64,000 bases of DNA, taken from positions 1,952,001 through 2,016,000 of the forward strand of contig OY759746.1 of assembly GCA_963662795.1 (NCBI GenBank). Direction: 5' to 3'. The notes beneath the pieces are model-generated. The model did not search any database and had not been told where the DNA came from. It saw only the letters and a program-made list of their open reading frames with translations. The translations under genes and the position numbers were made by a program. This document shows positions 1,265 to 53,068 of this stretch, piece after piece. Each line of letters starts with the position of its first letter. Within the stretch, counting starts at the first letter, position 1. This DNA comes from Spirochaetia bacterium. Lineage in GTDB: Bacteria; Spirochaetota; Spirochaetia; CADAEX01.

Positions 1265-1554
1265 AATCAATCTGCCGTCCATGGCAGCTTGATTAAGGCG
1301 GGGGTCACTGCTGCTAACAGAGGATAATTCGCTGCGCTCGGAGTACCTCGCTTGGCCTGCGGCATATTTTGCTATCATTAAAACAGTTCAAATTATGTTT
1401 TTACTATATTTAAATGTATTCCCTAAAAGTATTATGTTGAAAAAGGTTTTAGCAAAACATCGCTTATCCTCGAGACGTTATGCGAAAGGCTGGCCGAAGA
1501 GGAATAGGCTGGGGGCGGGGGAGGGGAAGACGCCGCCGCACATCGTGTGCGCCG
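1265..1554. repeat. Junction R2 (C; alpha; D)
   Basis: TAAC 1315, GTT 1477. Confidence 0.85.
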
Positions 1555-1960
1555 AAGAAAAATTAATAAACTGTGATTTTTATAATCTGTAAGAGTGTTT
1601 GTATAAATTGCCATTATAAAAGCAGAAAAAATGAAAATATAATTTTATTTTAGCAGTTCCTTTCGTTTCATTTGATTATGGATTGGTTAATAAACAAAAA
1701 AAAATAAATCGCATAAAATGTAATATATTCTTGTAAATGAAAATTATTTGGGATAAAGGTGAAAATAAAACTCTTAAGCTTGAAAGATGTATTTCTTTCA
1801 AGATATTTGCGGATTTGATTCTGGGGCTAGTTATAAAGTTAATTTGCAAAATATTAACCTTGGAATATAGCTGATTATGATAATTTTCACCGTCTCACAC
1901 TTCCATGTGTTCGACGAAAACCGCCCCAGCCAAGAAGAGCCGGCCAGCCCATCGCATAAC
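1477..1960. other. ORF-less outer unit (arm D), copy 1
   Basis: Near-identical to 15590-16072; no conserved ORF. Confidence 0.8.
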
Positions 1961-2155
1961 AGCGAATGGCCGGTTCCTGCTGTTTCTAAGGAAACAGCCT
2001 CCACCCAAATTGCCGAAATAATTCATGTTAAGAATAATGGAATAGAGTATAAACTTTTGGAGTAAAAAACACCATCGGCAACTTCGGTCATTCGCGAGAC
2101 GTTATCCACAATATCATCGCAAGAGGCATCGCCCGGACCTCCGGCCAACGGGCGA
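1891..2155. repeat. Junction R3 (D; gamma; B)
   Basis: TAAC 1957, GTT 2101. Confidence 0.88.
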
Positions 2156-2229
2156 AGAAAATAGAATTTGCTGTATAATATACTTTATACATAACATATA
2201 TAGTTTTCTATTTATTTAATATGTTAGAA
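2156..2229 (+). other. attI-like leader (inner-tier insertion site)
   Basis: ATATATAGTTTTCT..TTATTTAATAT|GTTAGAA; GTTAGAA complements R'' TTCTAAC at 3203. Confidence 0.65.
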
Positions 2230-2314
2230 AGACCCTGCGGGCGGCAGAGAATAAATATCCTTTATGTCTTATTAAAAAAAGTCGATTCTTTATGGATACA
2301 TTGAAGGAGTCCTT

Positions 2315-3193
2315 ATGAAAAAAGTATTTTTTTTTGGTGTACTTGCAGGTTGTGTTTTCTCTGCATTAATTTTCATAGGTTATTATGCGGTAACAAACCG
2401 TTCTTCAAAGAATAATATTGTTTCTCCTGAAGTTCAACACCAGGTTATACAAAATATTCAAGACATAAACAAAATTCTGGATTTTGCGGATGATAGTCTT
2501 GCAGAGTATACGGACAATCTTATGGAAGTACGCGAAATATTATTAAATGCAGATGCCAAGAAATACATAAATAAGGAAGAAAAACAGAAGATTACCGGTT
2601 TATGTGAAAAAGGTCTTCAGATAATTGAAACAGCAAAGTTTAATACTCTTCCAGTATTTCATAATAATTGTGATGGAGAATACAACAGGGTTATTCCGGT
2701 AACGCTTGATGCTGCAAAACCAACATACAAACTTACCATATCGTGTATGAATTTTAATAGGAATGTAGTTAATGTATTTATTAATAGTTTAGCATCTGAA
2801 ACAGGATTAGAAAATAATATTGCTGAACTTGATAAAATAGTATCTGCCGTTACATTAGAACGCGCACAACTGGGTGCTTATAAAAACAGGCTTACACATT
2901 CTCTTGAAACAGCAGAGGTTTTATCAAAAAAAAATGCGAACGAGAGACAGACTGAAATAAACAGAATCATTCAAAAAATAAAAACTGAACAACTGGTTCT
3001 GAGCGTTCAAAGCGCTAATGGAATATATTGTTTTGAAGACAGACAACAAATTCAAGTAAACTTTGATGAACTGAATAATGAATTAAACAGAATTAATGCA
3101 TTCTCACAAAAAACAATTGCAAAGAATAACAATATTTCCTTACTCTCTCAGTCAGATGCTGAAAACGCAATGCTGTATCTTGTAAAAAAATAG
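2315..3193 (+). CDS. Membrane-anchored flagellin-domain protein
   Basis: N-terminal TM; RAQLGAYKNRL and SVQSANGIY..EDRQQIQV flagellin motifs. Confidence 0.7.
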   Translation: MKKVFFFGVLAGCVFSALIFIGYYAVTNRSSKNNIVSPEVQHQVIQNIQDINKILDFADDSLAEYTDNLMEVREILLNADAKKYINKEEKQKITGLCEKGLQIIETAKFNTLPVFHNNCDGEYNRVIPVTLDAAKPTYKLTISCMNFNRNVVNVFINSLASETGLENNIAELDKIVSAVTLERAQLGAYKNRLTHSLETAEVLSKKNANERQTEINRIIQKIKTEQLVLSVQSANGIYCFEDRQQIQVNFDELNNELNRINAFSQKTIAKNNNISLLSQSDAENAMLYLVKK

Positions 3194-3202
3194 CAATAAG
3201 AT

Positions 3203-3330
3203 TTCTAACAACTGCTTCAGCCTGATATTTTCTTTGTCACGATTTGTGCTAACTCGCTGCACTCGTCTTACGCACAAATCGCGCCAATCCGCTACGCGGC
3301 GCGAAAATACAGGTTAAGCAAATGTTAGAC
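3203..3330. repeat. Classical attC (inner)
   Basis: TTCTAAC-AACTG-CTTCAGCC...GGTTAAG-CAAAT-GTTAGAC. Confidence 0.85.
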
Positions 3331-3449
3331 AGACCCTTCGGGCAGATAAGAAAAAAACGCATTTCCGAAAGGAACCAAAAGGTGTTATACTTTGAGTGTG
3401 TTTGAATAAGCTTGAATACAGCCTTACAAAGACTAATTGGAGGTAAAGC

Positions 3450-3821
3450 ATGAATTTAGGAGCCTTTTCGGTTAGCTTAGCCGTAAAAAACATTGTTTCA
3501 TCAAAAGAATTTTATACAAAACTTGGATTTACTGAATTCGGGGGAGATATTAGTCAAAACTGGTTGATATTGAAAAATGGCGATTGTATTATTGGATTAT
3601 TCCAAGGTATGTTTGATGGTAATATATTAACATTCAATCCAGGATGGGATCAAAATTCAAATATTATTAACAACTACACAGATATAAGACTTATACAAGA
3701 AAAAGTGATTCAAAATGGAATAACACCTACTTCATTAGTAGAACAGGATAGTAAAGGACCTGCAAGCTTTACCTTAATAGATCCGGACGGTAATACAATT
3801 CTAGTCGATCAACACATTTAG
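3450..3821 (+). CDS. VOC/glyoxalase family protein
   Basis: SLAVKNI..SKEFYTKLGF; GPASFTLIDPDGN. Confidence 0.85.
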   Translation: MNLGAFSVSLAVKNIVSSKEFYTKLGFTEFGGDISQNWLILKNGDCIIGLFQGMFDGNILTFNPGWDQNSNIINNYTDIRLIQEKVIQNGITPTSLVEQDSKGPASFTLIDPDGNTILVDQHI

Positions 3822-3830
3822 AAACGAAAT

Positions 3831-3943
3831 GTCTAACAACGAGTTCGAGCGCGACAACCCTATGTCACGATTCTTGCTTTTCCGGCATTCGCCGGGCAAG
3901 AATCGTGACATTGAACGCGTTGCGGCTCAATTCAATGTTAAAA
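3831..3943. repeat. Classical attC (inner)
   Basis: GTCTAAC-AACGA-GTTCGAGC...GCTCAAT-TCAAT-GTTAAAA; long internal stem. Confidence 0.85.
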
Positions 3944-3961
3944 AAAATAGAAACGGGGGAA

Positions 3962-4253
3962 GTCCGGCCTTGGCGTTGCCGTGCGGCCCTGGACAAGAAG
4001 CGATGATACTGGTGGATAACAGCGATTATTTCGCTGCGCTCCCTTTGGTCGCTTGGGCTCCTGCCAGTTGAGCTGGCAGATCGCCATATTTTGTTTTCAT
4101 AAAACCAGAACGACATGTGTTTTATGCTTTTTATGTTTGAAAAATCAAATAAATGTATTTTAGAGTTTAGCAACAAAACATCGAATAATCGCGGGACGTT
4201 ATCCACAATGCCCCCACAAGATGCGATCGCCCGGACCTCCGGCCGACGGGCGA
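3962..4253. repeat. Junction R4 (B; beta; A)
   Basis: TAAC 4017, GTT 4198. Confidence 0.9.
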
Positions 4254-4288
4254 GGATATGCAGTATAATATTAGCTAAAGGAATATTG

Positions 4289-5191
4289 ATGACTATTCGA
4301 ATATTATATTTTTCAGGAACTGGTTGTACTAGATATGTTGCAAAAGTCTTTGAACAAGAAATATCCTCTAGAGGACATATTGTACAGGTACAAGAAATAC
4401 GAAATGGTATAATTTATAATACAGATCCTTGTGATTTATTAATTATCTGCTTTGTTGTGCATGCCGCTAATCCACCTCATGTGGTAATAGATTGGATTTC
4501 CAAGCATAAAAAAGTTCAAAATATACCTGCTGTTGTAATATCAGTTTCAGGTGGAGGAGAGGTAACTCCAAATTTGGCTTGTCGTGTTTCATTGAAGAAA
4601 AAGCTTGAAAAAAAACAATTTAAGGTTATATATGAAAAGATGTTAATCATGCCATCAAACTGGATTGTTTCAACAAAACCAATACTGATAAATATGTTAT
4701 TAAAAGTATTACCAAATAAAATAGCATTTATAGTTGAAGAAATTCTAACTGGAAAAACAAATAAAACGGTACCGAAAATAGGTAATAGAATATTATCATT
4801 TTTGGGTAAACTTGAAAATATAGGTGCAAAACAATTTGGAAAAAAAATAATTATAAATAAAAGTTGTAAAGGATGTTCTTTGTGTTCAAAAAAATGTCCG
4901 ATGGGAAATATAGAAATAATAAACAATAAACCAGAATTTAATAATAAATGCATTATGTGTTTGAATTGTTTATATATATGTCCTGAGAAAGCACTTGTTC
5001 CAGGAATTGCTAAATTTGTTCTCATTAAAGAAGGATTTAGCTTTGATGAGATACTTAAAAATCAAAAAGACCCAGGTAAGTTTGATATTAAAGCAGAAAC
5101 AAGGGGTTTCCTATGGGTAGGATTAAGAAGATATTTGCTGAATACAAAGGATATGTTGAATACTTCATATAATGTAAATCCAAACATCTGA
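4289..5191 (+). CDS. EFR1-family flavodoxin/4Fe-4S ferredoxin protein
   Basis: YFSGTG flavodoxin loop; two CxxCxxCxxxCP; start moved to ATG 4289 after AAGGA RBS. Confidence 0.85.
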   Translation: MTIRILYFSGTGCTRYVAKVFEQEISSRGHIVQVQEIRNGIIYNTDPCDLLIICFVVHAANPPHVVIDWISKHKKVQNIPAVVISVSGGGEVTPNLACRVSLKKKLEKKQFKVIYEKMLIMPSNWIVSTKPILINMLLKVLPNKIAFIVEEILTGKTNKTVPKIGNRILSFLGKLENIGAKQFGKKIIINKSCKGCSLCSKKCPMGNIEIINNKPEFNNKCIMCLNCLYICPEKALVPGIAKFVLIKEGFSFDEILKNQKDPGKFDIKAETRGFLWVGLRRYLLNTKDMLNTSYNVNPNI

Positions 5192-5253
5192 AAATTGTTT
5201 CTTCGTAAATTACCCTACAACATGAAACTGAAAAACGTTGACTAGAATATATG

Positions 5254-5280
5254 TACAGGTAGAGTAATTACCTGACAGTA
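5254..5280. repeat. Trailer hairpin CAGGTAGAGTAATTACCTG (first of 7 copies)
   Basis: Related copies at 22774, 33855, 40992, 43539, 55038, 62071, each just before a junction. Confidence 0.7.
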
Positions 5281-5286
5281 GAAGAA

Positions 5287-5562
5287 GTCCGGCCTTGGCT
5301 TCCAGCCGTGCGGCCTGGACAAGAAGTGGGGACACTGGTGGATAACAGAGGATAATGCGCTTCGCTCGGAGTCCCTCGCTTGGCCTGCGGCACATTTTAC
5401 TTTTTTTAAATTATGACAATTTTTGTTATATAGTTTTCAATTTTATCACTACGGATAAAAAATGTTTTTAGAGTTTGTGACGTAAAACGTCGCTTATCCT
5501 CAGGACGTTATCCACAATGCCCCCACAATAGAAAATCGCCCGGACCTCCGGCCGACGGGCGA
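5287..5562. repeat. Junction R5 (A; alpha; A)
   Basis: TAAC 5343, GTT 5507. Confidence 0.9.
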
Positions 5563-5587
5563 GAAAAAAACTTAAGGATTAGTAAAA

Positions 5588-6583
5588 ATGAATACAATAA
5601 TACTTCCAAATGTATTAGATGATGATGGAGCAATAAGTTTTGTAAATGACTTAAATAGTAGTCTTGAATATCCTGAAGTTCAAATATGTTTTAAGAATTT
5701 ATCATTTGTAAGACCTTTTGGTGTTTTAGTTTCAGCGGAAGCTTTTAAAGATTTTGTAAACAAACGTTCTATAAATGGTTTAAAAACATATTATATGGAT
5801 TCAGAATGGTTAAAAAGTAAAAATAGTGGAGCCATAAGTTATTTAAAATATTTTGGATTTTTTAAATATTGTGGAATACCTGTAGGTGAGGAGCCAAATA
5901 AAATATTTCATACCAGTACTTATTTCCCAATTCAAACAATTGAAAAAAATGATTTGGAACAAAAATCTTTAATTGGTAACTGGAGAAATGTAATAGAAAA
6001 AAAATGTTCTGAATTATCGAAATTAATTACTAAAGATGAAATTGCATATACATATTTAGATTATGCATTAAGAGAAATAATCAGGAATGTTTTTGAGCAT
6101 TCTAATGTTAATCAATGCAGTTTAATGGCTCAATGTTATGCTAATGATGAAATCGAAATAGCTGTTGCAGATAGAGGTATAGGTATACATAACACTTTAA
6201 AAGATAAATATAACGTAGATAATCCAATTGAATCTTTACTATTATCAATGGAACCTGGTGTTTCTCGTGTAAATGTTGAAGAAAGTAAGGGGGAATGGGG
6301 AAATAGTGGTTTTGGTCTATATATTCTCTCTGGTGTTGGAAAAGAATACGGTACATTTTCATTATTATCAAGTTGTGCATATGTCAGTTTATATAAAGAA
6401 GATCAAAAAATACTTGTTGATAGAAATTATTTTAATGGTACAGCAATAAAAGTAAGAGTTAAAAAAAGCTATTTAGAGTATTTTCCCAATTTGCGTAAAA
6501 AATTGATTGATGAAGGAGAAGAAAAGTATCTTGAAAGGTATGGAAAAAAGATTAGAGCTTCAGGTAAATCAAAAAAATCCTAA
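5588..6583 (+). CDS. STAS-like + GHKL/HATPase domain protein
   Basis: EIIRNVFEHS, DRGIGI, NSGFGL, GT boxes. Confidence 0.75.
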   Translation: MNTIILPNVLDDDGAISFVNDLNSSLEYPEVQICFKNLSFVRPFGVLVSAEAFKDFVNKRSINGLKTYYMDSEWLKSKNSGAISYLKYFGFFKYCGIPVGEEPNKIFHTSTYFPIQTIEKNDLEQKSLIGNWRNVIEKKCSELSKLITKDEIAYTYLDYALREIIRNVFEHSNVNQCSLMAQCYANDEIEIAVADRGIGIHNTLKDKYNVDNPIESLLLSMEPGVSRVNVEESKGEWGNSGFGLYILSGVGKEYGTFSLLSSCAYVSLYKEDQKILVDRNYFNGTAIKVRVKKSYLEYFPNLRKKLIDEGEEKYLERYGKKIRASGKSKKS

Positions 6584-6601
6584 TTAAAAAAGAGTTTTAT
6601 A

Positions 6602-6895
6602 GTCCAGCCTTGGCTCCGCCGTGCGGCTTGGACAAGAAGTGGGGGCACTGGTGGATAACAGCGGTTAAAGCGCTTCGCTCGGAGTACCTCGCTTGGGCTC
6701 CTGGCTGTTGAGCAGCCAGTTCGCCAAACAGCGTAGGATTTTGAACTGTAACTTTATAAAACAACAAGTTTTAAACGACAATAAATAAAAGCTTTGAGTT
6801 TTCTATTCTTCGCCTACGATGCTTCGCTTAACCGCGGGACGTTATCCACAATGCCCCCACAAGAGAAATCGCCCGGACCTCCGGCCGACGGGCGA
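6602..6895. repeat. Junction R6 (A; alpha'; A)
   Basis: TAAC 6656, GTT 6841. Confidence 0.9.
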
Positions 6896-6976
6896 GGATA
6901 CATAAATAAAAGTAAAAAATATTTCTATTGCTCACAAAACACGAAATATAAATAAAATCATCGAAGGAAAAGTAAT

Positions 6977-7459
6977 ATGGAAATAAATATTGAGACTTTT
7001 TTAGGACTTTCTAGTTTGTCGTGGTCAGCAGTTAGCTCAATGGCGACTGTCCTAGCAGTAATTATAGCATTATTTCTCCCTTTTTATGTGGATAAAAAAA
7101 AGAAAACTAATTTAATTAAGCTAATTGAAGAAGAGATTAATGCCAATGCAAAATTATTAAAAGATGCAGATATAATGAAAGACGGTAATTTTGATGGTAC
7201 ATCAATCAATAGATTGACCCTAATGTGTGCTCTATTAATTCATATTGATTATAGTGTGTGGAGTAATAATAATCAAACAATTGCCGAGATTTCAGCGAAG
7301 ACATTTTTGAAATATTCAGACATTATGAAAATGCTTGGCGTTATAAAGAAATATGCAATAGATTATCAAAAAACAAAAGGTATGGTACCAACATCTGTAT
7401 TTATTGATGTAACAGTTAAAAAATGTATTAAAGCAATTGCTGATAGGAAAATAACATAA
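6977..7459 (+). CDS. Hypothetical protein with N-terminal TM helix
   Basis: 160-aa ORF with RBS filling a unit. Confidence 0.7.
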   Translation: MEINIETFLGLSSLSWSAVSSMATVLAVIIALFLPFYVDKKKKTNLIKLIEEEINANAKLLKDADIMKDGNFDGTSINRLTLMCALLIHIDYSVWSNNNQTIAEISAKTFLKYSDIMKMLGVIKKYAIDYQKTKGMVPTSVFIDVTVKKCIKAIADRKIT

Positions 7460-7602
7460 AAATGAATGGTGATTATTTAGAAATAAATATTATTATAAGT
7501 TTTGCAGATAATCAATATCAGCTATAAAAAAATAATTTAATTACTATTAATAATTTTCTAAAATGTCAATTAAAAAATATTAGAAATATCTATACATAAT
7601 TC

Positions 7603-7875
7603 GTCCGGCCTTGGCTTCCAGCCGTACGGCCTGGACAAGAAGTGGGGGCACTGGTGGATAACAGAGGATAAAGCGCTTCGCTCGGAGTACCTCGCTTGGG
7701 CTTCGCCACACATCGTAGAGAGTGAACAACACCAACTATATACAACCAGTTTTAAAAGAAAAATAAAACAGCTTTGAATATCAATGCTTATCTTACGATG
7801 CGTCGCTTATCCTCAGGACGTTAGCAGCAATACGTCCCCAAGAGAACGCCGCCCGGACCTCCGGCCGACGGGCGA
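7603..7875. repeat. Junction R7 (A; alpha; E)
   Basis: TAAC 7659, GTT 7820. Confidence 0.9.
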
Positions 7876-7931
7876 AGAGGTAATGACAAGAATACGATAA
7901 AAATATATAAATATGTAATTGGGAGTCAACA

Positions 7932-9215
7932 ATGGCATGGTTTTATGAGCACAAAGAAATTATAACTCCAAATGAAATTAAACAGCTTATAAAAGAGAGT
8001 ATAAAAGAAGCGCAAAGTAGAATATCTGGTAATCCCAAAAAGGTATTATTATTACCGCCAGATATTACAAGGGCACATAGTGGTGCAGGGTGGATAACGG
8101 AAGAATTATTTTATCAATTATCTGAAAAATCAAATGTTTGGATTATGCCCACTTTAGGGCAGCATTCAGCACACACAGATGAGCAGAATAAATGGATGTT
8201 TGGAAGCATTCCAAAAAATAGAATATTAAAACATAACTGGAGAACTGATTGTATCAAGCTTGGAACAATACAAGCAGATTACGTTAGGCAAGTAACAGGG
8301 GATAGAGCTGATTGGGATATCCCTGTAACGGTAAATAAAATACTTTTTGAAGAAAAATGGGATATTATTATAAACATTGGGCATGTTGTGCCGCATGAAG
8401 TCTTAGGCTATGCTAATCATAATAAAAATTACTTTATAGGCCTAGGCGGAAAAGAAATTATTTGCGCTTCTCATATGGCCGCAGCCTGCTATGGTATTGA
8501 GAATAATTTAGGAAGGCTTGTTACACCGCTTCGTCATTGTTTTAACAAAGCAGAAAGTGAATATCTTAGTGAGCTACCAGACTTTTACATACAACTGGTA
8601 ATGGGATATAATAATCAGAGTAAACTAGTACACAAGGGATTCTATTGCGGGGATGATCTTGATACATATCTACTTGCTGCTGAACACTCAAAGAAAGAAA
8701 ACATTGCAATAGTTGAACCACTTAAAAAAGTAATCGCAGTAATGCAAGGTGATGAATTTTACAGTACATGGGTTGCTAATAAAGCAATTTATAGAACAAG
8801 AAAAGCAATGGCCGATGATGGTGAATTGATTATAATAGCTCCGGGATTAAAAAGATTCGGGGAACAGGAAGCGGTTGATAGAATAATCAGAAAATATGGC
8901 TATACTGGAACAGAAAATATTATGAAGCTCTGGAGAAAAGAACCAGAATTACAAGATCTTTCTCATGCCACAGCACACTTAATACATGGTTCTACGGAAG
9001 GAAGATTTAAAGTTACGTATGCACCTGGGTATTTGCAGAAAGAAGATATAGAGAATGTAAATTATAGATATTTAAAATATGAAGAAGCGGTAAAAGAATA
9101 TTGTCCTGAAAAATTATCAAATGGGTATAATACTCTTCCAAGTGGTGAAAAAGTATATTTTATTGAAACACCGTCAGCCGGTCTTTGGAGCACAAAAGAA
9201 AAAATGAATTATTAA
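7932..9215 (+). CDS. LarA-like (lactate racemase domain, DUF2088) protein
   Basis: PPDITR, LGQH, VVPHEVLG motifs. Confidence 0.75.
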   Translation: MAWFYEHKEIITPNEIKQLIKESIKEAQSRISGNPKKVLLLPPDITRAHSGAGWITEELFYQLSEKSNVWIMPTLGQHSAHTDEQNKWMFGSIPKNRILKHNWRTDCIKLGTIQADYVRQVTGDRADWDIPVTVNKILFEEKWDIIINIGHVVPHEVLGYANHNKNYFIGLGGKEIICASHMAAACYGIENNLGRLVTPLRHCFNKAESEYLSELPDFYIQLVMGYNNQSKLVHKGFYCGDDLDTYLLAAEHSKKENIAIVEPLKKVIAVMQGDEFYSTWVANKAIYRTRKAMADDGELIIIAPGLKRFGEQEAVDRIIRKYGYTGTENIMKLWRKEPELQDLSHATAHLIHGSTEGRFKVTYAPGYLQKEDIENVNYRYLKYEEAVKEYCPEKLSNGYNTLPSGEKVYFIETPSAGLWSTKEKMNY

Positions 9216-9273
9216 AATCGTGAATATGAATATCTTAATTAATTACATAATTTATTAAAAACAAAAGGATTGT

Positions 9274-10491
9274 ATGACAGCACAAGGTTTTATTGAATTG
9301 GAAGAAAAATACGGAGCACATAATTATCATCCGTTACCAGTAGTATTGAAAAAAGGTAAAGGTGTTTTTGTATGGGATGTTGAAGGTAAAAAATATTTTG
9401 ATTTTTTGTCAGCTTATTCAGCAATAAATCAGGGACATTGTCATCCTAAAATAATAAATGCGATGATAAGGCAAGCAATGACTTTAACTCTTACGTCACG
9501 GGCGTTTTATAATAATAAGCTTGGACTTTATGAAAAGTATGTTACTGAATATTTTGGATACGATAAAATACTTCCAATGAATACAGGAGCAGAAGCTTGT
9601 GAAACAGCATTAAAACTATGCCGTAAGTGGGCATACGTAAAAAAAGGTATTAAAGAAAATCAGGCAAAAATTATAGTATGCGAAAACAATTTTCATGGAC
9701 GTACTGTTACTGTAATTTCCATGTCAAATGACCCAGACTCTTATAATGGATTTGGGCCGTTTACCCCTGGATTTATAAAAATACCTTATAATGATTTAAA
9801 AGCTCTTGGAAAGGTACTTGAAGACCCTAATGTGGCTGGATTTCTTGTCGAACCGATACAGGGAGAGGCTGGGGTTTTTGCACCAGCTGACGGTTATTTA
9901 AGAAAAGCATATGAAATGTGCAAAGAAAAAAATGTATTATTTATTGCAGATGAAGTGCAAACAGGTATTGCCAGAACCGGAAAGCTACTTGCCTGTGATT
10001 ATGAAAATGTGCATCCTGATATTTTGATTCTTGGCAAAGCTCTTTCAGGAGGCGTCTTCCCGATATCTGCTGTGCTTTCAGATAATGAAATAATGCTGTG
10101 TATCAAACCTGGAGAGCATGGCTCCACATACGGAGGCAATCCTATTTCTGCTGAAATAGCCATTGCAGCTCTTAAAATTGTAAAAGAAGAACAGCTCGCA
10201 GAAAAAGCAGCAAAACTTGGTGAAATATTCAGGAAGGAATTAAGTGAAATAAATTCACCAATAATTGAGGAAATAAGAGGTAAGGGATTACTTAATGCAA
10301 TAGTTATAAAACCTTTAAAAGAAAAAAATGCTTGGGATGTTTGTTTAAAAATGGCAGAAAACGGATTATTGGCGAAACCAACTCATAAGAGAATAATCCG
10401 ATTAGCTCCTCCTTTGGTAATTACTGAAAGCCAAATACATGAAGCCATAAAAATAATAAAAAAATCGATATTGTTTTTTGATATTCAATAA
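9274..10491 (+). CDS. rocD: Ornithine--oxo-acid aminotransferase
   Basis: [55 protein letters not shown]. Confidence 0.93.
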
Positions 10492-10802: not shown

Positions 10803-10847
10803 GGAATATTTGAAGTATAATAATATTTTAAAAAGGAGATTATTTAT

Positions 10848-44711: not shown

Positions 44712-44755
44712 TAGCTTTATTCAAATAGAAAATTAATTTTCTAAGAAAAAAGAGA

Positions 44756-45047: not shown

Positions 45048-45124
45048 AGAAAATAGAATCTGCTGAATAATATACGTTATACATAAGATATATAGTTTTC
45101 TTGTTATATAATATGTTCTACAGA
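45048..45124 (+). other. attI-like leader
   Basis: ..TAATAT|GTTCTACAGA is the exact complement of TCTGTAGAAC at 46519. Confidence 0.7.
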
Positions 45125-45138
45125 ATAAAGGGGATAAA

Positions 45139-46518
45139 ATGAGTTGTTATCACTGGGGCTTATCCCCAGAAAGCGATTGTAGGAAACTCACAAATGAGCT
45201 TGTTTACCGTGATAAAAATGGGCATCAGTACTGTTTAGTACATGCACCTAAATATTATGTTCAACCAAAAGGTTTCTTTTTAGGTTATATTGAAGAACAT
45301 AATGCCAATTCAATTCAATTCAAAAAAGACGATTTTGACAAACTACTAGATAAAACGATCTCAATTCAAAAAGAGCACTCTATGATTCGTTTTGATAAAG
45401 TGTATTTTCCCGATAATTTTCACTATACACTTCCTTTAGACTTAGCAAAAGGAAAGGACATCTGGTTAATAGAGTGTAGTTTTAATCTTACGATATGTAA
45501 TTCCCAAGTAAAAAGAATATCAATAACAAGATGTAAAATCGATGGTCTTACAATGCATAATCTGGAAATTGATGAGACTTTAATCCATTTCTCAAAAATT
45601 AGCAAATATTTAACTTTCAGAAATAATTCATACAATACATTTTCAATACAAGATTGTGAAGTAAATTGCAGGGTTGACTTTCGAGATAATAGTGTAAAAG
45701 ATAATTCACAGTTTAAGTGCTCAGTATACTTCAATCAATCAATATTTAATCGAACTGTTAAAATTGAGAATCTGCATTACGATAATGATTTATCAGAAGT
45801 CCGAATTTTAGATAACGAATTTAATAATAATTTATATTATCTTAATAATAAAATAGGAGACGAAATAAATTTTATTGATAATAAGTTCAATAATAGTTTT
45901 GCATATCTAGAAAATATCGACTTATCAAAGACAAAATTTGACTTACGAAATCTCGAATATTTAAGATTCAATAATTGCCGATTCCCCAAAAAATTAAAAT
46001 CAATTGAAGATGAATCTTTACAAAATGCTTACGAGATATACCAAGCACTAAAAAGAAACTCATTTGAACAAAATGATAATCAAGCTGCTTCGAAATGGCA
46101 TTATTTAGAAAAACATACCCTAAAAAAGATATATAGTAAGTCAAAGAAAATATTTAATCTAATAATTTTAACCATATATAATTTGCTTAGTGGTTATGGA
46201 GAAAAACCAGGTAAAGCTCTATTTGTTTTAGTGGTAGAAATTATTATGATTTTAGCTATTTACATTTATATAGGAAATAGAATTAGCGAAAATCTTAACT
46301 CGGATATAATTATTAGATGTATTTTTAGTCTCTCTGATGGTATTCCATTTATTAATTTTCCTATCGAATATACGCTTAAGCAACTTCTTGTGCGAAATAC
46401 AGATCTAATAGAAATCTCACATGTATATAATGTTGTAGCTGGAATAGGGAAAATATTGATTTCATTACAATTAGCGTTATTTTCTTTTGCGATAAGAAAT
46501 AAAATGAAGAGAAATTAA
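45139..46518 (+). CDS. Beta-solenoid (pentapeptide-like) protein with C-terminal TM region
   Basis: Repeating xFxN units; SGYGEKP..TM..AIRNKMKR. Confidence 0.65.
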   Translation: MSCYHWGLSPESDCRKLTNELVYRDKNGHQYCLVHAPKYYVQPKGFFLGYIEEHNANSIQFKKDDFDKLLDKTISIQKEHSMIRFDKVYFPDNFHYTLPLDLAKGKDIWLIECSFNLTICNSQVKRISITRCKIDGLTMHNLEIDETLIHFSKISKYLTFRNNSYNTFSIQDCEVNCRVDFRDNSVKDNSQFKCSVYFNQSIFNRTVKIENLHYDNDLSEVRILDNEFNNNLYYLNNKIGDEINFIDNKFNNSFAYLENIDLSKTKFDLRNLEYLRFNNCRFPKKLKSIEDESLQNAYEIYQALKRNSFEQNDNQAASKWHYLEKHTLKKIYSKSKKIFNLIILTIYNLLSGYGEKPGKALFVLVVEIIMILAIYIYIGNRISENLNSDIIIRCIFSLSDGIPFINFPIEYTLKQLLVRNTDLIEISHVYNVVAGIGKILISLQLALFSFAIRNKMKRN

Positions 46519-46521
46519 TCT

Positions 46522-46628
46522 GTAGAACGAGCAAATGTAGCAGTAAACTTTTTTGGCACACAAATATGCAGTCGCAAATTGTCCGCCAACTCTTCGGGAC
46601 AAAGTTCCAGCTGATTTGGACGTTATAA
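46522..46628. repeat. Classical attC (inner, diverged)
   Basis: GTAGAAC..CAAATGTAGC..GCTGATTTG..GTTATAA. Confidence 0.7.
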
Positions 46629-46653
46629 AAAACAAAAAATAGAAACGGGGGAA

Positions 46654-46926
46654 GTCCGGCCTTGGCGTTGCCGTGCGGCCTTGGACAAGAAGCGATGATA
46701 CTGGTGGATAACAGAGGATAATTCGCTGCGCTCGGAGTACCTCGCTTGGCCTACGGCATATTTTGCTATCATCAAACTTGAACAATAAAAGTTAAACCCT
46801 TTTTAAATTTAATAAAGTAGACATAAATGTTTTAAAGTTTGAACCGCAAAACATCGCTTATCCTCGGGACGTTATAAGCAATGTTCCCGCAAGAGAAAAT
46901 CGCCCGGACCTCCGGCCGACGGGCGA
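46654..46926. repeat. Junction R27 (B; alpha; H)
   Basis: TAAC 46709, GTT 46871. Confidence 0.9.
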
Positions 46927-47042
46927 GGATATAGAACTCAAAATATGTCTTTGAGAAAGATTTTAAAGTTAAAGCATTAGCATAAGTGAGAATAAAATTA
47001 TTTATATAAACATAAAGTTTTTAAATAATAATTCAAAAAAGC

Positions 47043-47071
47043 TTGTAAAATACGATATATAATCGTATACT
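47043..47071 (+). promoter_or_regulatory. sigma70 promoter + operator for vapBC
   Basis: TTGTAA-N17-TATACT; IR ATACGAT-N5-ATCGTAT. Confidence 0.65.
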
Positions 47072-47078
47072 ATATCTT

Positions 47079-47288
47079 ATGAAAGTAACAGCAATAATCG
47101 CCGATGAACTAATTAATGAAGTTAAATACTATTCAAATAGTACCACAACAACAGAGGCTATAACTATAGCCTTGAGAGATTGGCTTGATATTCATCATAT
47201 CAAAGAATTAAATGCGCAAATATCAAAGACCCCAATAACTTTTAATTATTCTGCACAGAAGATGAGAGAAGTAAATAGAAAATCATGA
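47079..47288 (+). CDS. vapB: VapB-like (DUF2191) antitoxin
   Basis: MKVTAIIADELI RHH-like; overlaps PIN gene. Confidence 0.75.
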   Translation: MKVTAIIADELINEVKYYSNSTTTTEAITIALRDWLDIHHIKELNAQISKTPITFNYSAQKMREVNRKS

Positions 47289-47659
47289 TAATTCTTGACA
47301 CTTCTGTTTGGATAGAGTTTTTAAAAGCAAATTCAGAATATTACACTCAAATTGCACAATTATTAGAAAAAAAGGAAGTACTTGCGGTAGAATGTGTATT
47401 TGGAGAATTATTTCAAGGTATAAAGAGTGAAAGAGAAAAATCTTTAATATCAGAATACTGGAAATACCTTCCTAAAATAGATAGTTCAGGATTATTTATA
47501 GAGGCAGGAATATATTCGAATAAAAACAAATTATTGGATAAAGGTGTGGGTCTTATTGATTCATTAATTTTAGTACATGCCTTGAAACTACAAATATCAA
47601 TATGGACTCTCGATAAAAAATTATTAAAAATAATACCAAAAGAACTTACTTATCAATAA
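47285..47659 (+). CDS. vapC: PIN-domain VapC toxin
   Basis: LDTSVWI..GEL..IDSLI..WTLDK. Confidence 0.88.
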   Translation: MIILDTSVWIEFLKANSEYYTQIAQLLEKKEVLAVECVFGELFQGIKSEREKSLISEYWKYLPKIDSSGLFIEAGIYSNKNKLLDKGVGLIDSLILVHALKLQISIWTLDKKLLKIIPKELTYQ

Positions 47660-47704
47660 TTAATTTAAAACAAATATAGTTATAAATCCAAGAAAAGAAT
47701 ATTA

Positions 47705-47994
47705 GTCCAGCCTTGGCTCCGCCGTGCGGCTTGGACAAGAAGCGGGAACACAGCTTATAACAGCGATTATTTCGCTGCGCTCCCTATGGTCGCTTGGGCT
47801 CCTGCCAGTTGAGCTGGCAGATCGCCATATTTTGTTTTCTTAAAACCGGAACAACATGTGTTTTTACTTTTCAAGATTGATAAAACCAAATAAAAATATT
47901 TTAGAGTTTCGCCACAAAACATCGAATAATCGCGGGACGTTATAAGCAATGTTCCCGCAAGATGCAATCGCCCGGACCTCCGGCCGACGGGCGA
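47705..47994. repeat. Junction R28 (H; beta; H)
   Basis: TAAC 47758, GTT 47939. Confidence 0.9.
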
Positions 47995-48045
47995 GGATAG
48001 TTTAAAGTTTAAAAATATGTCGTATAAATTGTATATTATAGAAGG

Positions 48046-48837
48046 ATGCCCTTGATTGAGAAAAGAGATATGAAAGAAGTAGTAAAACAGGTAATATATA
48101 ATTGTGTTGAAAATGAGAATGCACTTTTTAGTGGTTATAATATTTGGAAAAAGCCGTTAATATGCTTCTTAAAGACAGACAATATAGAAATCGCACAACT
48201 AAAGATTATTGTATCAAAAGACCATCTTTTACCGCAAGATATACTTGTTGATGCGAAAAGCATAATTTCTTTTTTTTTAGGCTTTAATAGTGAAATTGTA
48301 AAAAGTAATATAGGTGGTAGATTAGCATCAAAAGAATGGGCTTTTACCTATTTAAGAACAAATAACTTAATAACAAAAATTAATAATAAAATTGCAGAAG
48401 TAATGAATAAATATGGTTATAAGGCTGGGAAGATACCTGCAACAAATAATTTTAATGAAAATACATTACTCAGCAATTGGTCACATAGACACATAGCATA
48501 TATTTCCGGACTAGGAACATTCGGAATAAATAATATGTTAATAACAGAAGAGGGTTGTTGTGGTAGATTGGGAAGTGTAGTAACAAACTTTCAATTTGAG
48601 ATTTCACCAAAACAAATTAATGAAAAATGTTTGTATAAAATAAATAAGAGTTGTGGTCTTTGTATAAGTAAATGTGTTAATGATGTATATAGTACTTCTG
48701 GATTTAATAGATTTAAGTGTTACCAAATGTGTCTGGAAAATGCAGCATATTATAAAAATATAGGTAATGCAGATGTATGTGGAAAATGTTTAGTTGGGCT
48801 TCCGTGTTCAAGTAGAGACCCATCAAGAAAAAAATAA
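48046..48837 (+). CDS. Epoxyqueuosine-reductase-like 4Fe-4S protein
   Basis: WSHRHIAY..GLGTFG..GRLGSV; CGLC, CGKC. Confidence 0.75.
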   Translation: MPLIEKRDMKEVVKQVIYNCVENENALFSGYNIWKKPLICFLKTDNIEIAQLKIIVSKDHLLPQDILVDAKSIISFFLGFNSEIVKSNIGGRLASKEWAFTYLRTNNLITKINNKIAEVMNKYGYKAGKIPATNNFNENTLLSNWSHRHIAYISGLGTFGINNMLITEEGCCGRLGSVVTNFQFEISPKQINEKCLYKINKSCGLCISKCVNDVYSTSGFNRFKCYQMCLENAAYYKNIGNADVCGKCLVGLPCSSRDPSRKK

Positions 48838-48954
48838 GCAAGGAAAATACACTTAGTAATTCGTTTTAGTGATAATTATTATGGCGAGATGCTTCTAGTC
48901 GGAAATGTAGTCCAAAAAAAGCTTAAACATATTATTAAATATTAAAAAGTAGAA

Positions 48955-49239
48955 GTCCAGCCTTGGCTCCGCCGTGCGGCCTGGACAAGAAGCGGGAACA
49001 CAGCTTATAACAGCGGATGACCGGTTTCGGCTGGTGGAGAGTAAAATATAAGGGAAAAACCAGCCTTCACCCAAATTGCCTATCTTGGAAACCTTTTTGA
49101 ATGTTATAAAATATTAGTGAAGAGTTTAATCAGCTGTTGTATAATCAATTGAATAATCCGGCAACTTCGGTCATCCGCGGGACGTTATAAGCAATGTTCC
49201 CGCAAGAGGAGATCGCCCGGACCTCCGGCCGACGGGCGA
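48955..49239. repeat. Junction R29 (H; long gamma variant; H)
   Basis: TAAC 49008, GTT 49184. Confidence 0.88.
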
Positions 49240-49275
49240 GGATAACAAAACAATAAAATGTGTTATATTTAAAAT

Positions 49276-50853
49276 ATGAAACATAAAAATAGATTTGAAG
49301 AATTATCAAAATATTTATTATTTCCTCCTGGAACAAATGAAAGAAAAATACAAGAAGATTTTTTGAAAAAAACACGAACACAAGCAATAACAAAAAAAAT
49401 AAAAGAAAATTACGAAATACTGCAGGCGATGTTTTATTCTCAATTGCTTAATGGATCAGAACATATAATGAGTAAAAATCTTCGCGAGTTTCTCAATGAA
49501 GTTAACGAAAGAAATATACATCATGGTATATGGTCTATGCCTTCTTCTTTTAATATTTATGAAGCTTTTGTAGAATACATTCCTTTGATATCATATTTTC
49601 ATTTAAAGCCTGAAAAAGAATATATTCTTAACTTTGAAGACTATTTTGATTTTCTAACTGCAAATGCTGATGCTGATATGGAGGCCGTATTGCAAGAATT
49701 TAAAGAAAATGAAATATTTAGTTTGGCCAATAATACAGATTTAATTGATTTAATATTTGAAGGTGATTCTTCATATAAATATTACATTGAAGGTATTTCA
49801 ATTATAAGATATAAAAATGAATTTAATTTTTTTGCTTCTTTAGGTATTAAAGATGAACAATATAAATATGATTCTACTGAAGTAGATGAAATATTTAGTA
49901 AAAAAGATATTAAACCAGCTGAATATTTAAAATCTGAGAAAGTTTTATTAAAAAATGATTATCAAAAATCATTAGTCTTTTTTAGAATAGATTTAGAAAA
50001 TAAAACACAAGATGCTAAATATCTGATGAGAGATGAAGGAAACAAATATACAATAATAACCGATGATATATCAACTTTTAGAGAATATAACGGGAAGATT
50101 TCAAAAAAAAATTATGATTATTATAGAGAAACGAGAAAAGAAATACAAAGATTTGAAGATATATTTCAAACAATTAGATCTTTTATTTATATAAATGAAT
50201 ATTTAAACAATTTTAATGAAGACATAAAAATCAAACGTGTTGAAACAGAATTACGTAAATATTTTAAAAAGCCAATGTTTCAAAAATTATTAAAAAAAGC
50301 ACAATCTAAAGATCTAATATTTTTTAGAGAATTGTCAGTGTTGAATAATACGTATAGAAAATCAAACTCCAAATTAACAATTATTAATCCATATTTTAGA
50401 TTAGAGAGAAAAGGATATTGGAAAAGATTAGAAGCTGATAAATATGGTTTAGATAAAGACGGAAAAAGTATACAAGGGAGAACATGGGTTACAAATATTG
50501 AAACATGGACTGAAGAAATATTTAATGAAGCTCCAAAAAAAGAAGATATGAATAATCGTAAAGGGTTTATATATGTAATGAGAAATGCATCGCATGAAAA
50601 AAATATATTTAAAGTTGGTATGACTAGTCGTAATCCTTCAGTACGTTCTTGTGAGCTTTATACTACAGGATCACCAGATCAATTTTTAATAGCTCATGAT
50701 TGGTCGGTGAAGGATAGGTTTGAAGCTGAAAAATCTATTCATGATTATTTATATGATTATAGATTAAACGATAAAAGAGAATTTTTTAAGATTGAATATA
50801 AAGAGTTATTAACTGTAATCGATGGAATTATAGATAAAATCAATAGAGAATAA
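49276..50853 (+). CDS. T5orf172/GIY-YIG domain protein
   Basis: GFIYVM..FKVGMT..R..AEKSIH..REFF. Confidence 0.8.
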   Translation: MKHKNRFEELSKYLLFPPGTNERKIQEDFLKKTRTQAITKKIKENYEILQAMFYSQLLNGSEHIMSKNLREFLNEVNERNIHHGIWSMPSSFNIYEAFVEYIPLISYFHLKPEKEYILNFEDYFDFLTANADADMEAVLQEFKENEIFSLANNTDLIDLIFEGDSSYKYYIEGISIIRYKNEFNFFASLGIKDEQYKYDSTEVDEIFSKKDIKPAEYLKSEKVLLKNDYQKSLVFFRIDLENKTQDAKYLMRDEGNKYTIITDDISTFREYNGKISKKNYDYYRETRKEIQRFEDIFQTIRSFIYINEYLNNFNEDIKIKRVETELRKYFKKPMFQKLLKKAQSKDLIFFRELSVLNNTYRKSNSKLTIINPYFRLERKGYWKRLEADKYGLDKDGKSIQGRTWVTNIETWTEEIFNEAPKKEDMNNRKGFIYVMRNASHEKNIFKVGMTSRNPSVRSCELYTTGSPDQFLIAHDWSVKDRFEAEKSIHDYLYDYRLNDKREFFKIEYKELLTVIDGIIDKINRE

Positions 50854-50889
50854 ACAATTTAGATAAAATATTCAACAGATACTTAAAAA

Positions 50890-51144
50890 GTCCAGCCTTG
50901 GCTTCCAGCCGTACGGCCTGGACAAGAAGCGGGAACACTGCTTATAACAGCGAATGGCCGGTTCCGGCTGTTTCTAAGGAAGCAGCCTCCACCCAAATTG
51001 CCGAAATAATAAATGTTAAGAATAATGGAATAGAGTATAAACTTTTAAAGTGAAAAACACCATCGGCAACTTCGGTCATTCGCGGGACGTTCTCCGAAAT
51101 ACCGCCCCAAGAGGAGACCGCCCGGACCTCCGGCCCACGGGCGA
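50890..51144. repeat. Junction R30 (H; gamma; J)
   Basis: TAAC 50945, GTTC 51089. Confidence 0.9.
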
Positions 51145-51362
51145 GGAAATATAGTCAAAGAAATAATATTTGAGATTTTCCCTATAACATATTCTGAGCA
51201 ACCAAAAGATTGTATGTCGAGAATAATTATTTAAATTTAAAAAAGTTAATAAAAAAAGATCGAATACTAAATATTCTAAGGTTTTTGTCGTGTGATATTA
51301 TTCCGAAAGGAATGTTTTATAAGTGTTTTTAAAATGTAATATTGCGTCTTATAAAAAATATC

Positions 51363-51405
51363 TTGCATATTACTTATTTAGAGTGTATACTGTGAAGTGT
51401 ATACT
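51363..51405 (+). promoter_or_regulatory. sigma70 promoter + tandem operator boxes for phd-vapC
   Basis: TTGCAT-N17-TATACT; AGTGTATACT x2. Confidence 0.65.
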
Positions 51406-51420
51406 AAAAGAGGTTGAATT

Positions 51421-51666
51421 ATGGAAATAAGTACAAAAGAACTCAGGATAAAGCCTGGTAGAATTATAGAAAAAGTCTCAAATGGACAGGAAGTTGTAGT
51501 AACATTCAGAGGAAAAGCATTAGCTAGAATAGTTCCTATGTCTATTCATAATAAAAGTATTAACGAGAAAGAAAATGAAGAGCTTTTTGGATTATGGAAA
51601 GACCATGAAGATATTGAAAATGTCGAAAACTATGTAAGAAAGATGAGAAAAGGAAGAGAGTTTTGA
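51421..51666 (+). CDS. Phd/YefM antitoxin
   Basis: ISTKELR..GQEVVVTFRGKALARIVP. Confidence 0.85.
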   Translation: MEISTKELRIKPGRIIEKVSNGQEVVVTFRGKALARIVPMSIHNKSINEKENEELFGLWKDHEDIENVENYVRKMRKGREF

Positions 51667-52040
51667 TAATCGATACAGATGTAATAATATGGTTTTTAAG
51701 AGGAAATGAAAAAGCCAAGGAAGTAGTATATAAAAATATCCCATTTAAAATATCAGTAATAACCTATATGGAAATTGTGCAGGGAATGAAAGATAAAAAA
51801 GAATTATTGGTTTTTCAGAAGCAGTTGAGAAAATGGGATGTGGAAATAATACAAATTGATACAGAAATATCGTCAAGGGCGATGTTTTTTGTAGAAGATT
51901 ATTTTTTAAGTCATTCAATGGAATTATCAGATGCATTAATTGCAGGGACAGGAATACAGACAAAAGATAAAGTATTAACAGCAAATGATAAGCATTATAA
52001 ATTTATTCCCAACATTCAGCTGGAAAAGTTTAAACCTTAG
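51663..52040 (+). CDS. vapC: PIN-domain VapC toxin
   Basis: IDTDVII..MEIVQG..DALIA..TANDKHY. Confidence 0.88.
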   Translation: MIIDTDVIIWFLRGNEKAKEVVYKNIPFKISVITYMEIVQGMKDKKELLVFQKQLRKWDVEIIQIDTEISSRAMFFVEDYFLSHSMELSDALIAGTGIQTKDKVLTANDKHYKFIPNIQLEKFKP

Positions 52041-52044
52041 AAAA

Positions 52045-52311
52045 GCCCAAGCCTTGGCGGTGCCGTGCGGCTTGGAAGAAGGGGCGGTACTTCCGAGAAC
52101 AGAGGATAATGCGCTGCGCTCGGAATACCTCGCTTGGGCTTCGCCACACATCGCAGGTTTCGAACTACAACTTCCATTAACAACCAGGTTTTTGAAGAGA
52201 AATACTACAGCTTTAAAATAATAATAATATTCCAACGATGCGTCGCTTATCCTCGGGACGTTAGCAGCAATGCCCCCGCCAGGAGAGAGCTGCGTGCCGT
52301 CCTGGCACGCA
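52045..52311. repeat. Junction R31 (J; alpha; C)
   Basis: GAAC 52097, GTT 52260. Confidence 0.88.
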
Positions 52312-52409
52312 AAGAAAAAGGTAAGTGTTTGATATTTCTTAAAAGTGTGAATATGTAAAAATCTTACTTTCTGAAAAAAGGTTTAAAATCAGTATTTCAT
52401 AAATCCAAA

Positions 52410-52802
52410 ACAATTGTAGAAATTGAGGAAGAATGGGATAAAATAGTTATAAAGCAAAAGAACAAGACTAATTTAAAAAAGTTGTTTAAGAACATAGATA
52501 TTAATAATCTTCATGGCGAAATAAAAATTGAAGCCCCAGAGGGAAAAGACCTAAATTAGCAATATCAACAGATGAATATAATGGAAAAGAGAGACTTGTG
52601 GTATTCTTTTCTATAAATCAGTAAAGAAAAATGGTATCCATTCGAAGTGAAGATAGAAAGCAGTAAAATAGATGAAGTAATATTATTAGAATAATTTTAA
52701 AGTCTTGACTGGAAAAGTAGGAATTCAGAGTTTATAGTAAAAGTAAGTAAAGAAGAAATAAAAGAAGTGATAGATAAAAGCAGTGTATTGCTATTTGAAT
52801 AA
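52410..52802 (+). pseudogene. mazEF: Decayed mazEF copy
   Basis: Aligns to 769-1248 with two internal deletions and stops. Confidence 0.85.
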
Positions 52803-52818
52803 AAATCCCGGAATAAGA

Positions 52819-53068
52819 AATCAATCTGCCGTCCATGGCAGATTGATTAAGGCGGGGGACACTGCAGCTAACAGCGAATGACCGGTTCCGGCTGTTTCTA
52901 AGGAAGCAGCCTCCACCCAAATTGCCGAAATAATACATGTTAAGAATAATGGAATAGAGTATAAACTTTTGGAGTGAAAAACATCATCGGCAACTTCGGT
53001 CATTCGCGGGACGTTATCCACAATGCCCCCACAAGAGAAAATCGCCCGGACCTCCGGCCGACGGGCGA
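52819..53068. repeat. Junction R32 (C; gamma; A)
   Basis: TAAC 52869, GTT 53013. Confidence 0.88.

Follow-up and report, generated by a model that had tools for sequence, protein, structure and literature searches.

The 64,000-nucleotide stretch of DNA analysed here (called hereafter the window) comes from a Spirochaetia bacterium (contig OY759746.1; G000:C1:1,952,001-2,016,000, where G000 denotes the source genome) and lies inside a tandem array of integron-type cassettes, each ending in an attC site. The genome is a single contig of 3.93 Mb with 39.7% GC. The array covers about 332 kb of it (1,848,872-2,180,708), contains 195 attC sites, all co-oriented on the + strand, and has a GC content of 31.4% (31% in the window). 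The attC sites of the window, and one example of each of the two GC hairpins that border them (LH and RH), are as follows.

328..63906, + strand: 38 attC sites (R1 to R38) with their cassettes, numbers 63-100 of the 195-site array
6602..6639, + strand: example of LH, the common 3' cassette hairpin, GTCCAGCC..GGCTTGGAC then AAGAAG, directly upstream of the left arm of R6
6869..6895, + strand: example of RH, the common 5' cassette hairpin, TCGCCCGGACCTCCGGCCGACGGGCGA, directly downstream of the right arm of R6

The repeat of the window reads, in order, the LH hairpin (GTCCGGCC..GGCCTGGAC), AAGAAG, a left arm (armL), (T)AAC, a core, GTT(A), a right arm (armR), AAGAG and the RH hairpin. Arms are variable and 17-20 nt long, and cores measure 134-181 nt, or 69 nt in one family. 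The segment from AAC to GTT has all the parts of an ordinary attC, namely R'' (..AAC), L'' pairing with L', a variable loop, and R' (GTT..). Cores were located over the whole array by BLAST of the 38 cores of the window against the genome, which gave the 195 sites of the array and four solo cores elsewhere; two of these four were inspected and were uninformative, and one, near 451.5 kb, is cut near R' and adjoins an apparent insertion sequence (IS) element. Both AAC and GTT were present in 192 of the 195 sites (one reads ATT, two are truncated), L'' and L' differed at one position or none in 190 of 193 cores, and the AG that follows AAC was invariant in 190 of 193. Over the whole array the cores fall into an alpha group (101), beta (46, about 178 nt), gamma (37, about 140 nt), short alpha (7) and delta (2) families.

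The median cargo unit of the array is 1311 nt long. An LH-type motif precedes 143 of 194 attC sites and RH follows 166 of 194. A role of these hairpins as intrinsic terminators was considered and dropped: the scan gave seven terminator-like sites, versus 9.0 expected, with no LH or RH among them. Long open reading frames (ORFs) of the window are nearly all on the + strand, each upstream of a repeat, and the cargos are of kinds usual in chromosomal integrons: MazE/MazF, Phd/PIN, an AIPR protein, a Roc-COR GTPase and a C5 methylase (Pfam). A repeat of about 1.28 kb, 99-100% identical between copies and present in both orientations, lies inside cassettes 34, 123, 134, 140, 161, 178 and 181, and is probably an IS element.

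The right arm of each site was found to be complementary to the left arm of the next one, armR(i) to armL(i+1), in 188 of 192 neighbours over the whole array. By the same score, 55 of 193 pairs match within one repeat, and 10% of all other pairs do so; the mutual information between armR(i) and armL(i+1) is 3.21, versus 0.77 in permutations. Compensatory changes were seen, for example between R11 (GTTATGCAC) and R12 (GTGCATAAC). Therefore, the cassette runs TT-armR..cargo..armL-AAC-core-G, and the arms are not an extra module. Such pairing is what a canonical excised cassette circle needs, and represents ordinary integron logic with an unusually long R stem: in the excised single-stranded circle, the arms would lengthen the R''/R' stem of the cassette's attC. 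Predicted DNA folds were about 10 kcal/mol more stable in the circle form than in the array form, and in 179 of 191 sites the predicted fold of the bottom strand was the more stable of the two, at about -42 kcal/mol in the circle context. The arm stem is asymmetric 10-11 nt from the crossover, where an extra base lies on the armL side in 191 cases versus three on the opposite side, and G.T wobbles of the stem are found on the bottom strand (117, versus three on the top), this position reading C.A on the top strand. Unpaired features are thus distributed asymmetrically, in favour of the bottom strand, which is another mark of attC sites. The unpaired feature of the arm stem is about as far from the crossover as is the bulged base of L'' on the other side.

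Four hybrid cassettes of the array, all outside the window (41, 126, 161 and 181), have 5' and 3' arms that do not pair. Cassette 126 aligns end to end with its orthologue in a relative from another genus (G011) at 85.7% identity, the 17-nt right arm being the sole part that differs.

In the integron model, an attC travels with its upstream gene, and exchange is limited to the bottom strand at R'. The original prediction, made from the window, held that the cores assort independently of the cargo, with exchange at the AAC side as well as at the canonical GTT side. It cited two duplicated units: unit C, which encodes MazE/MazF, and the ORF-less unit D. These units and the sites on both sides of them are listed below.

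328..467, + strand: attC R1, AAC, a 134-nt core of short alpha type, GTT
465..1318, + strand: unit C copy 1, MazE/MazF (PF04014, PF02452); the arms GTTAGCAGCAATGCCCCCGCC / GGCGGGGGTCACTGCTGCTAAC and the GC hairpins are particular to the unit
1316..1479, + strand: attC R2, alpha core of 158 nt, downstream of C copy 1
1477..1960, + strand: unit D copy 1, without an ORF; the arms GTTATGCGAAAGGCTGGCCG / CGGCCAGCCCATCGCATAAC are unique
1958..2103, + strand: attC R3, gamma core of 140 nt, downstream of D copy 1
15428..15592, + strand: attC R10, alpha' core of 159 nt, upstream of D copy 2
15590..16072, + strand: unit D copy 2, sharing about 96% identity with copy 1
16070..16253, + strand: attC R11, beta core of 178 nt, downstream of D copy 2
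52098..52262, + strand: attC R31, upstream of C copy 2, alpha core of 159 nt, with GAAC instead of TAAC
52260..52872, + strand: unit C copy 2, with a degraded mazEF and arms of the class seen in copy 1
52870..53015, + strand: attC R32, gamma core of 140 nt, downstream of C copy 2

The two copies of each unit indeed lie between different cores. Copy 1 of D is flanked by R2 (alpha) and R3 (gamma), and copy 2 by R10 (alpha') and R11 (beta); copy 1 of C is flanked by R1 and R2 (alpha), and copy 2 by R31 (alpha) and R32 (gamma). Homology had been said to stop near TAACAG. Ten duplicate pairs, including C and D, were inspected, and in all ten the identity spans both arms, ends after ..GAC|GTT on the upstream side and after AAC-AG| on the downstream side, and collapses beyond. 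The same holds from the side of the cores: the gamma cores R3, 8, 24, 25, 30, 32 and 38 are 91-99% identical and stand next to four armL and six armR classes, and the beta cores R4, 11, 13, 23, 26, 28 and 37 are 90-98% identical and stand next to five armL and four armR classes.

The linkage of cargo and core was then quantified over the whole array. Cassette interiors, stripped of arms and hairpins, were compared all against all by BLAST; duplicates sharing at least 98% identity over nearly their full length formed 16 cargo families, with 36 cassettes and 23 pairs, and two cores were counted as the same at 0.9 identity or above. The downstream core was the same in 12 of the 23 pairs, versus only one of 23 for the upstream core, and two cores taken at random reach 0.9 identity in 7.2% of cases. 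In a contingency test, the association between armL(i) and core(i) was strong (mutual information 0.479, versus 0.231 permuted; z 7.6, reached by none of 5000 permutations). Independent assortment was therefore an overstatement. The association between core(i) and armR(i) was only weak (0.306 versus 0.235, z 2.2, p 0.019). Given the retention of the downstream core and the association between armL and core, a cargo with its downstream attC is the main unit of inheritance, as expected from crossover in R'.

This rule is nevertheless broken in 11 of the 23 pairs. By family, the core differed downstream in 7 of 16 cargo families and upstream in 10 of 16. In three pairs, fully identical cargos have downstream cores of different families: cassettes 43 and 169 have cargos 100.0% identical over 1550 nt and downstream cores of the gamma and beta families, respectively; cassettes 49 and 110 are 100.0% identical over 708 nt, with beta and alpha cores; cassettes 171 and 183 are 100.0% identical over 615 nt, with alpha' and gamma cores. 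Replacement of the core is thus a frequent second process, atop the canonical inheritance of cargo and downstream attC, and the proposal of an exchange at the AAC side besides the GTT side was supported. Whether the array also tells how a gene and an attC first become joined, as had been suggested, is a matter of speculation.

Could these junctions have been created by the assembly, through mis-joins at repeats of about 280 nt? The array is highly repetitive, and short-read Logan contigs (runs X3 and X4, from the probable source, and X6 and X8, from a related organism) stop at every LH or RH hairpin; over positions 1-20000 of the window they bridge no junction between arm and core, and so neither support nor refute the assembly. 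Yet the genome is one 3.93-Mb contig, and a mis-join needs identical sequence, so that it cannot join a unique arm to a different core family within about 40 nt. In addition, a like pattern was found in independent assemblies, those of G011 and of two more relatives (G002, of the same genus, and G057, of another family) and that of a Flavobacterium metagenome-assembled genome (MAG). We consider an artefact very improbable. In the related organism of runs X6 and X8 (coded B), about 31% of the words sampled from positions 1-10000 of the window were found; among the cassette interiors that it shares, 2197-3256 and 3298-3966 show no differences, and 7850-10579 shows 74. Strains or species thus have cassettes in common.

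Homologous recombination, or double-strand-break repair, deserves closer attention. It would reshuffle cargos and cores via the shared GC hairpins and arms, with no event at AAC. The shared segment made of hairpin plus arm is about 55-65 nt long and is identical among cassettes of one arm class. Swapped pairs often belong to common arm classes (10 members for the class of 43/169, 45 members for that of 49/110 and 4/32), and neighbouring cassettes share an arm class in 55 of 193 cases, versus 10% by chance. Moreover, four of 192 cassettes have mismatched arms, and the right arm of cassette 126, compared with its G011 orthologue, shows an exchange inside conserved flanks. Crossing-over in the flanks that re-pairs cargos and cores within one arm class therefore seems to occur. 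It cannot, however, build new junctions between an armL class and a core family, and at least 23-28 junction types beyond one per class exist in the array, 12 of the 13 armL classes with three or more members carrying at least two core families. Nor can it act on units with arms that no other cargo family has. The common GC hairpins are missing from C and D, each of which carries its own, and the arm classes restricted to a single cargo family are still associated with several core families: gamma, gamma, beta and gamma for D; alpha, gamma and gamma for C; alpha' and gamma for 171/183; alpha, beta and gamma for 33/124/146. The earlier argument that RecA-promoted exchange via the GC flanks does not account for the swaps thus holds for C and D, and extends to 171/183. 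Cores also stay whole, a single clear chimera having been seen among them. Finally, unequal exchange should leave duplications of several cassettes, and a single syntenic two-cassette duplication, with an identical internal core, was found in the array: single-cassette events dominate. Homologous recombination is on these grounds an unlikely source of the swaps as a whole.

A second possibility is template switching independent of any recombinase, in which a polymerase would stall at the base of an attC hairpin, copy another hairpin, and return at the other base, the conserved TAACAG and GGGACGTTA serving as microhomology. The predicted hairpins have high stability (in the circle context, the bottom strand folds at about -42 kcal/mol), and the conserved end bases provide 6-9 nt of microhomology. 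Exchange inside cores does occur, as shown by one clear L''/L' chimera, core #172, and by core #3, which has a single L''/L' mismatch of like kind. On the other hand, two precise switches would be needed per event, yet 190 of 193 cores are intact, and the ten inspected pairs all break at the same two points. We know of no precedent for the ectopic replacement of a whole hairpin. This explanation is, in our opinion, improbable.

It may also be asked whether the duplicated cargos ever shared a core. If an unknown process repeatedly joined arm-bracketed cargo to any available core, the copies would differ from the start. How cassettes are created is stated to be unknown in the part of the literature available to us (PMC4889954), which leaves room for such a process, and a second attC of canonical type inside a cassette (15245-15344) indicates that cargo can be recruited with foreign sites. 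However, 12 of the 23 recent duplicate pairs share the downstream core, so that copies normally descend from a unit of cargo plus core, and the coreless arm-arm junction TAACGTTA had no match in the array. Repeated de novo formation hence appears quite unlikely.

Related genomes were examined for the same behaviour. The exact 17-mer of RH was found in arrays of 6 of the 60 relatives searched, from three genera and two families. G002 and G011 share arm classes, core families and some cargos with the source genome. Six orthologous cargos with an intact downstream attC were read from coordinates in these two genomes; three further matches were dropped (one had a truncated core, for one no core was found, and one was not examined). 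The core family differed from that of the source genome in three of the six. The unit resembling cassettes 14/137/186 has an alpha-type core in the relative, versus beta in all three copies of the source genome; that resembling 77/177 has gamma versus alpha, and that resembling 131 has an alpha type versus gamma. The units resembling cassettes 42, 163 and 126 have the same core family as in the source genome. In G057, a nine-copy unit has one core in seven copies and two other cores in the remaining two, whereas a four-copy unit keeps its core in four of four. In the Flavobacterium MAG, a duplicated cassette, about 96% identical between copies, has cores that differ in L''/L'. Orthologous or duplicated units thus do not always keep their downstream core, as seen in G002, G011 and G057; had they always done so, the original prediction would have been refuted.

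We then turned to the recombinase gene that heads the array. It encodes a 339-aa tyrosine recombinase, lies on the same strand as the cassettes, and ends about 160 nt before the first one. The first armR starts at this point, some 160 nt past the stop codon (..TACTAGGA|GTTATACG..), and is able to pair with the armL of attC #1, so that the junction is putatively attI-like. The protein has a PF00589 domain and a SAM-like N domain. It scored 200 bits on the integron integrase model TIGR02249, versus a cut-off of 265, with a match in two stretches that skips model positions 173-229; the alignment to VchIntIA (2a3v) likewise skips VchIntIA residues 173-238. Relative to the intact IntI proteins of G011 and G057, about 41 aa are absent, including the ..RKYPNA..W.W..FP.. 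segment. The IntI-specific insertion near patch III (I2, or intI_Cterm), by which integron integrases are recognised, is therefore missing. The best family-level similarity was to NF040815 (the XerA/"integron integrase" model), with 214.5 bits versus a cut-off of 220; the match to the Pyrococcus XerA-like 4a8e was 131 bits, and scores for XerC (175, cut-off 335) and XerD (173, cut-off 330) place it outside the XerA/Xer family as well.

The absence of I2 and the position of the gene are both conserved. Homologues from G011, G057 and a Flavobacterium have the same gap of about 41 aa, and those of G011 and G057 lie upstream of arrays in the same orientation. Of six further homologue loci (Spirochaetia, Bacteroidota), five have arrays of AAC..GTT repeats downstream: L019, L034, L035, L087 and L090 have an I2-less homologue followed by co-oriented arrays, and L023 has none. 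At L035, the Flavobacterium locus, the arms of three neighbour pairs read by eye are complementary, with the same C.A position. In named records, the relatives of the 339-aa recombinase come from Spirochaetia MAGs, with 79% and 54% identity. A small tree of I2-less recombinases, IntIs and Xer-like proteins had an unresolved backbone, where long branches meet.

True integron integrases were also looked for. G005, G008, G011 and G057 encode an intact IntI elsewhere in the genome (374-400 bits), with its own, different attC arrays. The sole gene resembling a true IntI in the source genome (G000:C1:412371-413302) is frameshifted, scores 176 + 196 bits on TIGR02249 in two frames, and adjoins transposase-like ORFs. 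The attC found inside a cassette of the window (TAACAATCAGTTGGAG..CAGCTCAACTGAACGTTAT, 15245..15344, + strand) is 100 nt long and canonical-looking, lies between a 620-aa ORF and LH, and resembles the attCs beside the true IntI of G005; it looks like a cassette of one integron type nested in another. A strict pattern search for sites of this type returned this single site in the source genome.

Taken together, these observations led us to the following proposal. Cassettes would mainly move in the canonical way, by crossover at G|TT of R', taking along the downstream core. In addition, the inner attC, that is, the core from AAC to GTT, would be replaced as an intact module through a second site-specific exchange, at the R'' (AAC) end. 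The agent of this second exchange may be the tyrosine recombinase directly upstream of the array, which lacks I2. In canonical integrons, I2 reads the extrahelical bases and enforces the use of the bottom strand.

The biochemistry of IntI gives some reasons to expect such an activity. The attC top strand carries 5'-AAC-3' in R'', and the wild-type top strand recombines 1000-10000 times less than the bottom strand, a difference that is reduced by the loss of extrahelical bases, which raises top-strand recombination (both from the accessible part of PMC5027507). According to the portion of PMC4792948 at hand, the extrahelical bases act via I2 to pull the tyrosine of the L-box subunit away, and in this way prevent a second strand exchange that integrases are otherwise able to carry out. 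An enzyme without I2 could therefore perform either of two reactions. By the first route (a), two top strands would recombine at R'', with cleavage of 5'-AAC-3', and give a circle made of a cargo and its upstream core, orientation being preserved. By the second (b), both strand exchanges would be completed between two folded hairpins, so that their tips would be swapped while the cargo stays in place. The two are indistinguishable in the array, because both break at G|TT and within AAC-AG, and AG is invariant. Route (b) is favoured because of the fold bias toward the bottom strand and because no core among the 195 is inverted. The end of the array would fit route (a): in the last attC, #195, the cut falls precisely at AA|C, where a truncated gene is joined to it (..TTTAT|CAGAGG), in keeping with an AW|C cleavage of the top strand. 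The case stands alone, and the joined gene has no intact copy with which to compare it. At the same end, near 2,180,730, the last right arm is cut by an IS-type transposase gene.

Several points weigh against this proposal. The bottom-strand fold is favoured (179 of 191 sites; wobbles 117 versus 3), which disfavours free use of the top strand. Frequent reactions between the top strand and attI should give inversions, and none of the 195 cores is inverted. When we asked whether a swapped core corresponds to the upstream core of the other copy, matches of at least 0.9 were found solely among the beta cores, which are all alike. As AG is invariant in 190 of 193 cores, breakpoints at AA|C and at AACAG| cannot be told apart. 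For swaps within common arm classes, a deletion by homologous recombination in the hairpin-plus-arm segment of about 65 nt would also be an explanation. Lastly, it is by its position that the recombinase is tied to the array, and the true IntIs of relatives could act in trans; the source genome's own IntI-like gene is frameshifted, beside intact ones in relatives. From breakpoints at both ends of the core we infer a role of this enzyme, and the choice of the route is made in the same way. All in all, we consider it modestly probable that exchange at the AAC (R'') end of the core is a further activity of the array-head recombinase. A broader reading, namely that I2-less array-head recombinases of Spirochaetia and Bacteroidota form an unrecognised integron class, with two-strand or either-strand exchange and with cores and arm-bracketed cargos that are separately exchangeable, is tentative and rather doubtful.

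In a natural array of 195 cassettes, the inner attC is replaced often and precisely while the cargo stays up to 100% identical, and the recombinase next to the array is devoid of the domain to which strand choice and the block on the second exchange are attributed. The attC type of a cassette should accordingly be used with caution to infer its origin. If the enzyme is responsible, the array would be a natural test case for the role of the I2 domain, would explain attC clusters now filed as being without integrase, and would offer a tractable system for attC acquisition. If the unrecognised class exists, any DNA gaining a complementary pair of arms could receive a working attC, and cassette genesis would be open to experiment.

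How does this system compare with those already known? A literature search, which did not cover supplements and subscription journals, returned nothing on the replacement of attC cores in nature, nor on arrays that have an I2-less integrase at their head. The system is of integron type, with a different integrase, long-armed attCs and modular exchange of cores. It shares with the Vibrio cholerae superintegron (VCR attC) and other sedentary integrons a large array of co-oriented, promoterless cassettes, many toxin-antitoxin and defence-type cargos, attC sites built as R''(AAC)-L''..L'-R'(GTT) with a favoured bottom-strand fold, the main crossover at G|TT, and a cassette 5' end complementary to its own R''. 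It differs from them by its adjacent recombinase, which has no IntI insertion and is co-oriented with the array; by an R stem of 17-20 bp, with a conserved C.A (top) or G.T (bottom) and a bulge 10-11 nt from the crossover; by the GC hairpins that bracket the cargo; and by the coexistence of several core families, swapped relative to the cassettes. In the "inverted integrase" integrons of Treponema, attC sites measure 63-68 bp (T. denticola and T. vincentii; PMC3607928), whereas cores here measure 134-181 nt plus arms, and are short (69 nt) in one family only. Their integrases were identified as IntI, whereas the recombinase described here is under the IntI cut-off and lacks the insertion.

The top-strand and L-box attC recombination observed in the laboratory (Nivina et al. 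2016, PMC5027507; Escudero et al. 2016, PMC4792948) has a chemistry that would give precisely an exchange at the AAC side. In the accessible portions of these two papers, wild-type sites undergo such events 1000-10000 times less often than bottom-strand ones, or the extrahelical bases must be mutated, and those portions describe no natural consequence in arrays. The Xer/XerA resolvases have the best family-level similarity to the recombinase and also lack I2; the gene found here is under the family cut-off, however, and heads a cassette array with a putative attI-like junction instead of lying at a dif site. Another described situation is that of the attC clusters known as CALINs, and of tyrosine recombinases without intI_Cterm: there too, an attC cluster lies beside a PF00589 recombinase, and an IntI is often found elsewhere. 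In the part of their paper available to us (PMC4889954), Cury et al. (2016) judged such recombinases not to be IntI, and intermediate ones had fewer than three attC sites. In contrast, in several genera the I2-less gene described here heads arrays of tens to 195 cassettes, with conserved position and orientation.

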